Numbered from the stretch's first letter, positions 27,265 to 31,959 are shown. The stretch is DNA of 60,736 nt from Candidatus Levybacteria bacterium RBG_16_35_11 (GCA_001781995.1 MFNH01000071.1:1-60736), one strand, 5' to 3'. Notes: generated by a model from the sequence alone, not told the origin. Program-made: numbers and translations.

Positions 27265-28197
27265 ATGATAGAAATAAAATGCATCCTTTGTGGAGATAAA
27301 CAGAGAACTTCAATATTATTTAAAAAAAGTTTTTCCAGAAGAGATATAAATAAAACAGTTTTTTCCGCAAGGAGAAATCCCGATTCAGTCCATTATCAAA
27401 TTAACAAATGCGAAAGATGCGGAATGGTTTTTTCTTCTCCCGTGATTTCCTCAGGAAACATACTTAAGCTTTATAAAAATAGTAAATTTAATTATCAAGA
27501 TAAGGCTCATCTACTTTCAAAAACTTATCTTACCTATCTTAGAAAAAAGACAAAATATTCACAAAAATCAAGGATTTTGGACATAGGATGCGGAAACGGC
27601 TTTTTTCTCAAGGAAATTTTTGCAAAAGGAAACAAAAATATTTATGGGGTAGAACTAAGCAAAGATGCAGTATCAAAGGCAAGCAAAAATATAAAAGACA
27701 GAATAAAACTTACTCCACTTAAGAAAAATATTTATAGAAACGATTCTTTCGATTTAATTACCTGCTTTCATACCTTGGACCATGTTATCGATCCTAATAA
27801 TTTTATGAAAACTGTTTTTAATTATTTAAAACCAAAAGGACAAGTTTTTTTTATCGTACATGACGTGAAGGGATTATCTGTTAAAGTGTTTGGGGAAAAA
27901 TCTCCAATTTTCGACATTGAACACATTTTTCTTTTCAATGAAAATACCCTAAAAAAGCTTTTTTTGAAAAACGAATTTAGAAATATAAAGACTTTTAAAA
28001 TAAGGAATAGTTACAGCTTTTATGATTGGCTTATATCATCCCCTTTTCCGCTAAAAATAAAGAAACCAATTTCAGCTTTTTTAAAGACAACAGGCATAGG
28101 GAAAATGATGCTACATTTGAAAGCTGGTAACATAGGAATAATTGCTTCTAAGCGATATCAGCCAAAAAGGTTAGGAAAGAAGGTCGCGAAAAGGTAA
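27265..28197 (+). CDS. class I SAM-dependent methyltransferase with an N-terminal Cys4 ribbon
   Basis: CILCG...CERCG followed by ILDIGCGNG. Confidence 0.85.
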   Translation: MIEIKCILCGDKQRTSILFKKSFSRRDINKTVFSARRNPDSVHYQINKCERCGMVFSSPVISSGNILKLYKNSKFNYQDKAHLLSKTYLTYLRKKTKYSQKSRILDIGCGNGFFLKEIFAKGNKNIYGVELSKDAVSKASKNIKDRIKLTPLKKNIYRNDSFDLITCFHTLDHVIDPNNFMKTVFNYLKPKGQVFFIVHDVKGLSVKVFGEKSPIFDIEHIFLFNENTLKKLFLKNEFRNIKTFKIRNSYSFYDWLISSPFPLKIKKPISAFLKTTGIGKMMLHLKAGNIGIIASKRYQPKRLGKKVAKR

Positions 28198-29411
28198 AGA
28201 ATAATAGCAATAGCAATTCCCACAAAAGTCAAAATAACAACAGCATTCATTATTTTTGAGTTAATATAACCACCAAGAATTTTTTTATCATTTGAAAGAA
28301 CGTATAAGAAAATAAAGACCGGTAAAAGAAGTACCGCATTTATTGACTGAGTAATAATAAGGACAGGAATAAGGGGGACAAAGGGGAAAATTACCATTAA
28401 TGCTCCTAAGATTATGGAAAACGTAAAAATCCCGTAAAAATAAGGGGCCTCCCGAAATTTATAATTAAGGCCTGATTCAAGACCAAACGCTTCGGTAATA
28501 ACATAAGATGTTGAAAAAGGAACAAGGGCTGCTCCAAAAATTGACGCATTTAGAAAGCCAATTGCAAATAGCACAGAAGCAAATTGTCCGGCAAGGGGTT
28601 GAAGAGCCAAAGCTGCGTGTTTTGCATCAGTAATTGTAATTCCTTTTGTAAACAGGACTGCTGCAGAAGTAACTATTATAAAAAAAGCAATAAAATTTGT
28701 TAAGAAAGATCCGAAAAATACATCTCCTCTTTCAATTTTTAAATCCTCTTTGGAAAGCTTCTTATCTACAACATAACCTTGGATAAAGAATTGTCCCCAA
28801 GGTGTAATGGTTGTTCCAATTACTGCCATCATCATTAAAAAATAACCATGGCTAAATTGAAAAGTTGGAGTAACTAAGCTTTTTACCGCAAGCCCCCAAT
28901 CGGGATGAACAACAACTGCAGAAATAAGATAGGCAAAATAGAAAAAAGATAAGCCAAGAAAGACCCGCTCTAGCATTTTAAATCCCCCCCTTGTTACCAA
29001 AAAATATATAAAAACAGTTGCAACCGGGATTGAAATAAACCGAGGAACATTAAGAATCTCTAAAGATGCTCCTATTCCTGCAAATTCCGCAGCAATTACC
29101 CCTGTGTTACCAATAAAAAGGACTGCCATAACAAAAGTTGTCCATCCAATTCCAAACTTCTCTCGTATTAGTGAAGCAAGTCCCTTACCGGTTACAAGTC
29201 CCATTCTTGCTCCGATTTCTTGAGTTATTGCAAGCGAAAAAGTTGTTAAAAAAAGCACCCAAAGTAAAGAGTATCCAAAGTTTGCTCCGGCTACCGAATA
29301 TGTTGTAATTCCACCTGCGTCATTATCGGCAGTTCCCGCAATTATACCGGGACCGATTACGATTAGAAAAGGGAGTAATCGTTTAAATAATTTTCTTCTA
29401 AATTCCTTCAT
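28158..29411 (-). CDS. Nramp-related permease B (non-canonical metal site)
   Basis: GPGIIAGTADNDAGGITTYS in TM1 and GTTITPWGQFF in TM6; about 11 TM segments. Confidence 0.8.
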   Translation of the reverse strand: MKEFRRKLFKRLLPFLIVIGPGIIAGTADNDAGGITTYSVAGANFGYSLLWVLFLTTFSLAITQEIGARMGLVTGKGLASLIREKFGIGWTTFVMAVLFIGNTGVIAAEFAGIGASLEILNVPRFISIPVATVFIYFLVTRGGFKMLERVFLGLSFFYFAYLISAVVVHPDWGLAVKSLVTPTFQFSHGYFLMMMAVIGTTITPWGQFFIQGYVVDKKLSKEDLKIERGDVFFGSFLTNFIAFFIIVTSAAVLFTKGITITDAKHAALALQPLAGQFASVLFAIGFLNASIFGAALVPFSTSYVITEAFGLESGLNYKFREAPYFYGIFTFSIILGALMVIFPFVPLIPVLIITQSINAVLLLPVFIFLYVLSNDKKILGGYINSKIMNAVVILTFVGIAIAIILYLFATFFPNLFG

Positions 29412-30585
29412 ATTCAGCGCTTTCCTCTTCGATTCTTGCTAAGATTGAGTCAATTGTTATTATTCCGATAGGTTTTTTCTCTCTATCTACAACTGGAAGG
29501 ACTCTTAAATTGTAGTGGGTAAAAATTTCCAAGATCTTTTTAAAATCAACATATGGGTAAGTAAATTTTCTCTCAGAAACAATATCTTTAAGCTGAGCAA
29601 GAGGATCTTTATCTATTAGGTCTTTTATGTAAGTTACGCCAACAAATCTTTCAGCGCCGTTCGTAATTATAATTGCCTCAGGTTTTATTTCTTCCGTTGA
29701 AAGCTCACTCATTAGTTCTTTAACGGTTTTATTTCCATCTATTGAAAGAAAGTTTAAAATCATTAAACCTCCGGCAGTATCTTGGGGGAATTTAACTAAT
29801 CTTTCAACAGTTGCCGCTTTTTCTCCTCCTAATAATTTAAGAATTTCTGCTAATCTTAGAGGGTTAAGTTTATAGAAAATGTCTGCGATTTCAGAAACCC
29901 GCATTCTATTTACTACTTTTTCCAAAAAACTGGGAGGCAACTGTTCCAATATTGCTTCTTGAGTGTGCTCTTCTGCTTCTTCGATTGCCTCAGCTGCCTT
30001 TTCTGTGTCTAAACTTTCAACGATTCCAAGCCTTTCTTTTGTGCCTGCTTCTTCCAAAATATCTGCCAGTTCACTTGGATGGAAAGTATTTAATCGTGTT
30101 TGAGTTACTTTAATTTTTATATTCCCGGTTTCATAGTCAAAGGCTTCTATCATTTGCCAGGGAAGAATTTTTGACTCTGCTTTGATTAATTTTCCCAAAT
30201 GAAGCCTTCTTAAAAGTCCTGCAAGTCCAATGTCTATGCCAATTACTTTAATTTCGCCATTTCGCTCTAAAAGCACATCATTTACTCGAACTAATCTTTT
30301 TCCGTCGATATCGATAACTTGTTTATCCAATAAATCCTCATTTAAATAAAAGTCTTTAGTGTCATAGGGCAGGATAGGAAAATCGGTTGTTTTAAGAATA
30401 GCTCCTCTGGTGTGGAATTCGATTGAATTTGGAGGAACGGTTATTTTTCTCGATCCAATTTTTATTACAACCTTAGAAAGGGAAGGTTGGGGATGATTTT
30501 CAAATACGGAAGCATCAATAATTTTGCCGTATTTTTTTTTCTGAAAATAAACGTTTTTATTGACAATTTGACTTAAATAAATCAT
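29398..30585 (-). CDS. soluble PRC-barrel-like / MgtE N-terminal domain / CBS-pair protein
   Basis: The MgtE_N-like segment is LADILEEAGTKERLGIVESLDTEKAAEAIE. C-terminal CBS-like repeats follow, and there are no TM segments. Confidence 0.75.
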   Translation of the reverse strand: MIYLSQIVNKNVYFQKKKYGKIIDASVFENHPQPSLSKVVIKIGSRKITVPPNSIEFHTRGAILKTTDFPILPYDTKDFYLNEDLLDKQVIDIDGKRLVRVNDVLLERNGEIKVIGIDIGLAGLLRRLHLGKLIKAESKILPWQMIEAFDYETGNIKIKVTQTRLNTFHPSELADILEEAGTKERLGIVESLDTEKAAEAIEEAEEHTQEAILEQLPPSFLEKVVNRMRVSEIADIFYKLNPLRLAEILKLLGGEKAATVERLVKFPQDTAGGLMILNFLSIDGNKTVKELMSELSTEEIKPEAIIITNGAERFVGVTYIKDLIDKDPLAQLKDIVSERKFTYPYVDFKKILEIFTHYNLRVLPVVDREKKPIGIITIDSILARIEEESAEYEGI

Positions 30586-30648
30586 ATTTTAATTTTAGTT
30601 TTGCCTCAGTTGATCTGTCAAGGATTAATACGCTTTTTTTAGAACTAA

Positions 30649-31959
30649 TCAAAGGAGTAAAAACATTGAAACCGCGGCTGCTGCCATCGCAAAAAACGTA
30701 AGCCAGACAAGTGTTTTTGAAATTTTCCCGCTTTTGTATTCACCCATAATTTTTTCGTTAGAGGCAATTTTGGCAATTAAGAAAATTAACGGAACTGCCA
30801 CAACTCCGTTAATTACTGCTGTTACAACTAAAGCTTTCATTGGATCAATACCAACAAAATTAATAGCTAGTCCTATTAAAGTTGCAATTATAATTACACC
30901 ATAAAAGCCATGAGCCCGTTTTAATTTTAAGTTTAAACCCTCATTCCAGTTAACCGCCTCAGCTACGGCATAAGACGCAGATCCCGCAAGAACAGGAACA
31001 GCCAAAAGTCCTAAGCCAATTATTCCAAAGGAAAAAATGCATTTTGCTAAAAATCCCGAATTAGGAAAGGTTTGAACAAGCGGTTCAAGCGCTTTAGCAG
31101 CATCAGCCGCGGTATTAATATTTGTAATGCCACTTACATAAAGAGTGCCTGCGGTTGTAACGATAATTGCCCACATTGTAATTTCTGAAGCAGTCATTCC
31201 TATAAGGGTGTCTATCCGGATTAAACGGATGAAATTCCAGCTAATTCTTGGAGGACTACTAATAGTTGATAAGTGTTTGGCTTTTTCTTCTTCGACCTCT
31301 TCACTTGCTTGCCAGAAAAACATGTATGGAGAAATTGTTGTTCCTAAAACTCCTGTAATCATAAAAAAGAAGCCAAAAGAAAATTCAAAATGGGGAATTA
31401 AGGTAGATTTTAATATCTCTATCCACGGTTCATTAATAATAAAAACCGTAATTAGATATGAGACAAGTGCAAGAGAAAGCCACTTTAAAATCCTTGCATA
31501 AACTCTGTAGGAACTAAAGATTTCCAAAAGAAGAACAATAATCGTAAATAGTATGGTTAGAATAACAAATGGGATGGGAACAATTAGCTGTGCTGCTGCA
31601 GCAACAGCGCCAATATCAGCTCCGATATTAACTGTATTTGCTATAACAACAAGAATAACCGCAGATAATACTATTTTTTTGCTATAAAATTGTTTGCATA
31701 CTGCAACAATCCCTTTTCCCGTAACAACACCAATTCTTGCGCATGCTTCTTGGACTGCAGTTTGGAAGGGAAGCATAAAAAGTGACGTCCAAAGCAGGCC
31801 ATAGCCAAACTGTGCTCCCGTTTGTGAGTAGGTTGCGATCCCCGATGGGTCGTCATCTGCAGCCCCTGTTACAAGACCTGGTCCCAATATTCTTAAGAAA
31901 CGGCTAAACTTATGCCTTATTTTATTGGCTTCTTTTTCCACATTTTCAGTGTTCCACAA
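30649..31959 (-). CDS. Nramp-related permease A (non-canonical metal site)
   Basis: [20 protein letters not shown] in TM1 and [12 protein letters not shown] in TM6. The start is uncertain: TTG at 31959 or GTG at 31941. Confidence 0.8.

Follow-up and report, generated by a model that had tools for sequence, protein, structure and literature searches.

A conserved gene pair for an NRMT-type permease and a soluble MgtE-sensor-like protein in Candidatus Levybacteria

Nramp-related transporters of the NRMT (or NrmT) type are the closest described relatives of the system considered here, which is encoded on the minus strand of a 60,736-nt stretch of DNA from Candidatus Levybacteria bacterium RBG_16_35_11 (the window, to which all coordinates refer). 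Three co-directional open reading frames (ORFs) lie there, in the order of transcription permease A, sol and permease B, where sol denotes the soluble protein encoded by the middle gene. Shin et al. (2014; PMC4072509) reported Mg2+ complementation by two NrmTs together with riboswitch control, and described a gene resembling the cytoplasmic domain of the MgtE channel as the common neighbour of NrmT genes, often co-transcribed with them under an M-box. The authors speculated that this MgtE-like neighbour gives cytoplasmic feedback regulation, and named 'metal chaperone activity' as an alternative.

EleNRMT of Eggerthella lenta (Ramanadane et al. 2022; PMC8806188) is a structurally and functionally characterised transporter of Mg2+ and Mn2+. 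The same study gives the binding-site signature of NRMTs as DxxG in transmembrane segment 1 (TM1) and TxxA/T in TM6, with the TM6 Thr being important for Mg2+, and reports that mutation of the TM10 Gln (Q379) cripples transport. For the cytosolic part of MgtE, the Mg2+ sites were defined by Maruyama et al. (2018; PMC5882242) as Mg4 (D91/D247), Mg5 (D226/D250), Mg6 (D95) and Mg7 (E59), of which D95 is essential for the Mg2+-dependent closing of the channel.

Here, we show that the conserved unit at this locus consists of two genes, sol and permease B. We consider it probable that this is an NRMT unit in which permease B imports Mg2+, sol acts in trans as its sensor, and permease A stands apart. 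A preliminary description of the window had regarded the assembly as uncharacterised, but both the pairing and the idea of feedback were already in Shin et al. (2014; PMC4072509). As the pairing was published in 2014, it is not new as a discovery. What is modestly new is the presence of PRC barrels on the partner, a sister architecture in which PRC barrels and MgtE are joined, the permease A clade, riboswitch-free and probably leaderless expression in Levybacteria, and the mutual exclusion of the pair with CorA.

The sol/permease B gene pair

To follow the pair beyond the window, NRMT loci were sought in one genome per species, with a query in which permease B and EleNRMT were aligned. Loci were found in Armatimonadota, Chloroflexota, Actinomycetota, Bacillota, Nitrospirota and several other Patescibacteria lineages, and nearly all of them carry, directly upstream of the NRMT gene, an ORF of ~400-430 aa whose match to sol begins at residue 1 and extends to about residue 385. 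Among 51 such upstream ORFs from outside Levybacteria, Pfam recognises MgtE_N and CBS in 48/51 and PRC in 38/51. The pairing of sol with NRMT genes is tightly conserved across phyla. Within Levybacteria, a B-type permease gene comes immediately after sol at every locus with enough downstream DNA. In the window's taxonomic family, sampled by one genome for each of 61 genera, the two genes co-occur in 20/21 of the sol-bearing genera. Adlercreutzia, which belongs to the family of the organism that EleNRMT comes from, has the pair as well, with 9 nt between the genes. Rare exceptions are L130:2911-3996 and L144:3027-4013, where a FemAB-family ORF and no sol homologue lies upstream of the NRMT gene.

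The end of the sol ORF and the start of the permease B ORF share 14 nt (29398-29411), and a GAGGA (29427-29423) is located 11 nt ahead of the permease B ATG (29411), within the final codons of sol. The same overlap geometry is seen in many Levybacteria loci. Through this overlap and the internal Shine-Dalgarno, permease B is predicted to be produced in step with sol.

The 63-nt gap between permease A and sol contains the best promoter-like site of the region (11/12). Since the number of sites returned by the promoter scan was no higher than in shuffled sequence (15 vs 13.1), the promoter call rests on conservation across genomes: GGGGTTGACA-N17/18-TACAATTAAA (TTGACA / TACAAT) precedes sol in 24/25 Levybacteria loci, whatever the upstream gene, and ends 6-9 nt before the sol ATG (regions upstream of sol in L001-L024, L185 and L187, and 30586-30640 of the window, were compared). 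Because this conserved promoter directly precedes sol, independent of the upstream gene, sol and permease B form a transcription unit of their own. Conservation extends to a G-run ahead of the -35 element and a (c)GAAAC ahead of the -10 element, which might serve as an operator. The preliminary description was right about the three minus-strand genes and the 14-nt overlap of the last two; its operon is supported only for sol and permease B, as a promoter-like site lies in the gap behind permease A.

As the promoter abuts the sol ATG, the mRNA is probably leaderless or near-leaderless and leaves no room for an M-box. Consistent with this, a search of the window for an M-box or other riboswitch gave no hit, whether the gathering threshold was applied or E was relaxed to 5. 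M-box aptamers do occur directly upstream of sol homologues in one locus of Actinobacteria and one of Bacillota (L146:2467-2640 and L139:2293-2458, 146 and 135 bits), and none was found at the gathering threshold in eight other sampled loci, including those of the candidate phyla radiation (CPR) and of Adlercreutzia.

The identity of permease B is supported by several lines of evidence. It matches the Pfam Nramp family (PF01566) with E 7.7e-88 over profile positions 1-356 of 357, and aligns with EleNRMT (PDB: 7qia) over the full length with E 1.1e-96 and about 42% identity (HMMER). Its metal site reads D-A-G-G in TM1 and T-T-I-T-P-W in TM6, where canonical Nramp proteins have D-P-G-N and A-x-x-M-P-H. 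The TM3 Glu and the TM10 Gln are retained, and the TM6b His is replaced by Trp (161-sequence alignment). Permease B therefore carries the DxxG and TxxA/T of the NRMT signature, and these are kept in 73-77/77 of its orthologues. In a quick LG+G4 tree with long branches, permease B and EleNRMT form a clade (SH-aLRT 96), and the canonical Dra, Bfra and NRAT sequences are placed on the opposite side (SH-aLRT 100). The two permeases of the window score 109 and 120 bits against the NCBIfam MntH model, whose cut-off is 430, and neither has the canonical DPGN and A/CxxMPH motifs of Nramp/MntH.

The motif reading was checked against HMMER alignments to solved structures and against the 161-sequence alignment. 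It agrees with the preliminary description, which had stated that both permeases lack the canonical transition-metal site and had taken one or both for Nramp-related Mg2+ (or other hard-cation) permeases, a reading that is supported for permease B as an Nramp-related Mg2+ transporter type; phylogeny and alignment do not place both permeases within MntH clades. Judged by its sequence, permease B is a bona fide NRMT, an Nramp-related transporter with the LeuT fold.

The soluble partner has a composite architecture. Pfam finds PRC at residues 79-162 (E 4.4e-9), MgtE_N at residues 169-269 and CBS at residues 346-386, and residues 164-391 align with the cytosolic domain of Thermus thermophilus MgtE (PDB: 2yvy) with E 2.7e-22. 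In the AlphaFold2 (AF2) model of sol (pLDDT 88), two beta barrels are accompanied by a helical N domain and by a CBS pair, and the best Foldseek hits of the model, with E about 1e-16, are cytosolic domains of MgtE. When residues 1-165 were modelled alone, they gave a tandem PRC module (pLDDT 87.8, pTM 0.82) whose closest folds are the tandem PRC proteins CdpB1/CdpB2 (PDB: 8qzo; E 3e-7, TM-score about 0.6), with further matches to RimM, MTH1859 and the reaction-centre H subunit. We found no hydrophobic segment in sol, as the maximum Kyte-Doolittle mean over 19 residues is 1.17, compared with 2.9 in the permeases, and no Pfam match to the MgtE pore domain (PF01769). Against the full MgtE model TIGR00400, sol scores 88.6 bits, where the cut-off is 232.75. 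Sequence and model together describe sol as the cytosolic sensor part of MgtE, namely its N domain and CBS pair, without the pore and behind two PRC barrels. The Pfam and hydropathy results bear out the preliminary description of a PRC/MgtE_N/CBS protein without transmembrane segments, and the 2yvy alignment and Foldseek its assignment to the N and CBS part of MgtE.

The sol family is large and uniform. A profile built from it matches 4409 clusters (50% identity) at E <= 1e-30, and among the best 150 matches about 128 are 390-470 aa long and about 20 are 585-656 aa long, the latter being the length class of complete PRC-MgtE channels. In two Chloroflexota loci, the ORF upstream of the NRMT gene (L149:2188-3984 and L164:2188-3984) encodes a 598-aa protein with PRC, MgtE_N, CBS and the MgtE pore (Pfam). 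This architecture indicates that PRC-bearing MgtE channels exist and adjoin NRMT genes, and the soluble partner may have been derived from such a channel through loss of the pore. A 926-aa frame in another Chloroflexota locus (L173:1183-3963) has a sol-like N-terminus followed by a second MgtE_N, CBS and MgtE pore, and is either a real fusion or two genes in one frame.

We also looked for natural fusions of sol with an NRMT. No fusion of Nramp length is present among the best 150 profile matches. Two database proteins whose annotation lists Nramp, CBS and MgtE_N domains (P0247 and P0300) were found with a concatenated query and rejected, being frameshifted gene calls from high-GC DNA with an Arg/Pro-rich, out-of-frame junction and tail.

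Table 1. Features of the locus, in coordinates of the window
Feature	Position	Strand	Description and basis
Permease A	31959..30649	-	436 aa, TTG start; neighbour outside the two-gene module
sol (soluble partner)	30585..29398	-	395 aa; tandem PRC barrels, MgtE_N and CBS pair, without pore
Permease B, NRMT/NrmT type	29411..28158	-	417 aa; probable Mg2+ importer
Two-gene-unit promoter (predicted)	30592..30621	-	TTGACA, 18 nt, TAAAAT; ends 6 nt before the sol ATG
Tandem PRC-barrel module of sol	30100..30585	-	residues 1-162; AF2 model, fold matches
MgtE_N helical domain of sol	29779..30081	-	residues 169-269; Pfam
CBS pair of sol	29404..29778	-	residues 270-394; Pfam, 2yvy alignment, AF2, Foldseek
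sol S231 / S380 (Mg4 D91 / D247 equivalents)	about 29893-29895 / 29446-29448	-	alignment
Translational coupling region, sol/permease B	29398..29427	-	read from sequence

At its far end, permease B overlaps tail to tail by 40 nt (28158-28197) with a convergent methyltransferase-like ORF on the plus strand (27265-28197).

Permease A and the Mg2+ transporters of the family

Permease A also matches the Pfam Nramp family over its full length (E 3e-77), and its match to EleNRMT is weaker (E 5.7e-53). Its clade is invariant for D-P-S-G in TM1 and T-T-I-S-P-Y in TM6, has Asp for Glu in TM3, and has Ala in TM10 in 80/80 orthologues, where all other sequences have Gln. DxxG of the NRMT signature is therefore present, while the TM6 T-T-I-S brings a Ser that is outside the published A/T set, the TM10 Gln is missing, and permease A does not group with a characterised NRMT. 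In the LG+G4 tree, its orthologues form a tight clade of their own on a stem of 1.42.

Matches to permease A were obtained in more than 586 species genomes. Orthologues that are 62-74% identical are found in Patescibacteria, Bacteroidota, Alphaproteobacteria, Acidobacteriota, Chloroflexota and one metagenome-assembled genome labelled Methanoperedens. The pattern points to horizontal spread, to unusually strong constraint, or to the two combined. In the tree, the Bacteroidota and Alphaproteobacteria sequences nest among those of Patescibacteria. The permease A-like subgroup of 43-55% identity has the same motifs. The clade has no conserved functional neighbour at its loci, the only recurrent ones being lineage-specific housekeeping genes (ftsE, ftsX, prfB and an M23 peptidase). 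Permease A may provide a second route for Mg2+ or carry another cation.

The source assembly is a reduced CPR genome of 1.23 Mb, 82% complete, with two Nramp-type genes and one MgtE_N gene. CorA and the MgtE pore were both absent from this 82%-complete assembly (P-type MgtA and CorB/C were not searched). With no CorA and no MgtE pore, the sol/permease B pair is probably the main Mg2+ importer of the assembly.

A survey of the window's taxonomic family again covered CorA, MgtE, sol and Nramp-type genes, and not MgtA or CorB/C. CorA is present in 17/61 genera, the MgtE pore in 5/61, sol in 21/61 and permease A-like genes in 46/61. The permease A-like gene is the sole candidate among the searched families in 16/61 genera, and 6/61 have none of these families. 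The latter six (G042, G043, G044, G046, G052 and G059) lack CorA, the MgtE pore, sol and any Nramp-type gene, and five of their assemblies are 84-99% complete. Sol and CorA never occur in the same genus, where about 6 such genera would be expected (Fisher p = 2e-4, without phylogenetic correction). Such exclusion fits the idea that sol and permease B together are a Mg2+ importer equivalent to CorA.

Proposed regulation of permease B and its alternatives

The ligands of the MgtE sites were compared across the sol family. The equivalent of D95 (Mg6), D235 in the window's sol, is kept in 48/49 family members, and the D246 equivalent is nearly invariant. At Mg4, D91 is kept in 39/49 and D247 in 42/49, and the D226 position of Mg5 is Asn in 37/49. 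Taken together, an analogy with the MgtE sensor is plausible for the sol family as a whole.

The window's own sol keeps the equivalents of D95 and E59, and has Ser for D91, Ser for D247, Asn for D226 and Ala for D250. Both Mg4 ligands are replaced together in 5/6 of the aligned Levybacteria sols, including that of the window, and the sixth keeps the D247 equivalent. The Mg4 pair is Asp/Asp in about 40 orthologues from outside Levybacteria, compared with Ser paired with Ser, Ala or Thr in these five Levybacteria proteins. From the alignment, the replacement is a paired change across the N-CBS interface. Since the Mg4 and Mg5 ligands are lost, sensing by the window's sol may be weakened or different.

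How the pair could work is suggested by these comparisons. The enlarged metal site of permease B, with DxxG in TM1, TxxT in TM6 and Gln in TM10, suits hydrated Mg2+, and its homology to EleNRMT and the Clostridium acetobutylicum NrmTs makes import of Mg2+ (and Mn2+) without proton coupling the most likely activity. By analogy with MgtE, sol would most likely be a detachable cytosolic subunit that senses Mg2+, and possibly nucleotide, binds permease B, and reduces its uptake once Mg2+ is plentiful. Docking or oligomerisation would be the task of the PRC barrels. In this Levybacteria lineage, transcription of both genes would start from the strong conserved promoter and probably yield a leaderless mRNA, and since there is no M-box, Mg2+ feedback on the unit would have to act on protein.

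A more specific proposal, which we put forward only tentatively, joins two claims: that sol docks by its tandem PRC barrels on the cytoplasmic side of the SLC11 carrier and closes it on cytosolic Mg2+ or ATP, and that the permease A clade is a third functional class of SLC11-like transporters. If true, a pore-less channel sensor would have been re-used to regulate an unrelated LeuT-fold carrier, and the permease A class, present in many phyla, would be the only candidate Mg2+ importer, within the searched families, in about a quarter of Levybacteria genera.

Several observations weigh against a Mg2+-importing permease B under the control of sol. EleNRMT functions alone in liposomes (PMC8806188), so that a partner is dispensable for transport, and the complementation assays of Shin et al. 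(2014; PMC4072509) left the MgtE-like partner out, which means that it is not strictly required. The NrmT of A. capsulatum, which has an MgtE-like neighbour and no riboswitch, apparently transports mainly Mn2+ according to the same paper. The window's sol lacks both Mg4 ligands (S231 and S380) and has Asn at the Mg5 position, and the sole sol-NRMT 'fusions' that were found are frameshift artefacts. The assembly is only 82% complete, which limits the comparative absences; the exclusion between sol and CorA may come in part from shared ancestry; and transcription may read through from permease A into the pair.

Other explanations were considered. The preliminary description had envisaged a three-gene operon in which sol controls one or both permeases, perhaps joined in an A/B heteromer. 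The three genes are indeed co-directional with a gap of only 63 nt between permease A and sol, the order lon / permease A / sol / permease B is conserved in the closest relatives (L185, L186 and L187; 81-85% sol identity), and within the window's taxonomic family high-identity A-type genes accompany the pair in 13/16, above expectation (p = 1e-5, uncorrected). However, that order is found only in these relatives, in which the gap between permease A and sol ranges from 52 to 403 nt (403 nt in L185), and none of 80 permease A loci (L025-L104) has sol within 5 kb of the orthologue. Most Levybacteria have the pair with permease A elsewhere than beside it, and three of them (L001, L005 and L108) carry it downstream in the opposite orientation. 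Genes like permease A are found with CorA, with the sol pair, or on their own. Moreover, the conserved promoter immediately ahead of sol separates permease A from the pair, and the description of EleNRMT as a monomer (PMC8806188) speaks against a heteromer. We conclude that permease A is a separately inherited neighbour outside the sol/permease B unit, and a three-gene operon is very improbable. Since permease A is an unrelated and widely conserved neighbour, there is no new three-protein assembly to be explained.

If sol belongs with permease B alone, it could still be something other than a sensor. As a metal chaperone or buffer, or as a factor for NRMT assembly or localisation, sol would use its PRC barrels as a tether and its MgtE-like part for metal binding only. 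This would fit the chaperone alternative raised by Shin et al., the function of the permeases without a partner (PMC4072509, PMC8806188), the loss of the Mg4 and Mg5 ligands in the window's sol, and the fact that scaffold or tethering proteins (CdpB, RimM and the reaction-centre H subunit) are the nearest folds to its PRC module. We nevertheless think it unlikely, because the entire MgtE sensor module, N domain and CBS pair, has been retained and aligns in register with the regulatory domain of the channel, D95, needed for closing of MgtE, is nearly invariant, and PRC-MgtE channels fuse the same module to a pore that is presumably gated by it. Somewhat less likely again is that the pair carries Mn2+ or another divalent cation instead of Mg2+ in this organism. 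The A. capsulatum case, the transport of Mn2+ by EleNRMT (PMC8806188), the missing M-box at the window locus and the lost Mg4 ligands would all agree with such a role. It is opposed by the full NRMT signature of permease B, including the TM6 Thr and the TM10 Gln, by the mutual exclusion of the pair and CorA among the 61 genera, by the lack of any other recognised Mg2+ channel in the genome (CorA and the MgtE pore were searched), and by the M-box control of sol homologues in other phyla. A Mg2+ importer with a trans-acting sensor therefore remains the reading that we favour.

Comparison with known systems

The additions made here bear on work in which the partner has received little attention. 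The structural work on EleNRMT was done without the MgtE-like partner, and a term search of PMC8806188 returned no mention of an operon, a neighbouring gene or an accessory protein. In the searchable literature, we found no later functional study of the MgtE-like partner and no paper that links MgtE to PRC barrels. The tandem PRC barrels that the partner carries are mentioned neither in PMC4072509 (term search) nor in other searchable papers. A term search of a 2026 review of bacterial Mg2+ transporters likewise gave no mention of NRMT or NrmT. Combined, the additions sharpen the feedback-gate hypothesis for the partner, which can be tested with purified proteins. The permease A clade, being very conserved across phyla, is a second modest lead for specialists in metal transport.

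Permease A fits the description of the Nramp-related 'outgroup' of PF01566 (Cellier 2022, PMC9606685; Gaudet laboratory preprint 2026, PMC12873925). The likeness, which is by description only, lies in the lack of DPGN/MPH and of the proton pathway and in the position apart from the sampled NRMT group. The signature of DPSG, TTISPY and TM10 Ala is not described in the texts consulted.

Permease B resembles EleNRMT in having the equivalents of D55, G58, T224, W229, Q379 and E133. It differs in TM6, where a Thr stands at the position of EleNRMT Ala227, making permease B the 'T' variant of DxxG-TxxA/T.

The pair as a whole is most like that of the C. acetobutylicum NrmTs (Ca_c0685 and Ca_c3329), whose permeases lack the Asn, Met and His residues for metal and protons, and which have a soluble homologue of the MgtE cytoplasmic domain encoded directly upstream and co-transcribed. 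The C. acetobutylicum genes have an M-box, whereas in the window there is none and a promoter abuts the ATG instead. The partner of Ca_c0685 is split, and that of the window is a single gene. The host of the window also differs in having a reduced CPR genome without CorA or MgtE.

The MgtE channel itself (T. thermophilus; PDB: 2yvy, 2zy9) shares the N domain and the CBS pair with sol, and the full-length PRC-MgtE channels of L149 and L164 have the same order of PRC, MgtE_N and CBS, with the full profile matched. Those channels continue into an MgtE pore, whereas the window's sol ends after the CBS pair. Compared with T. thermophilus MgtE, sol has two added N-terminal PRC barrels and no transmembrane pore, and it is encoded beside a LeuT-fold carrier instead of being fused to a channel.

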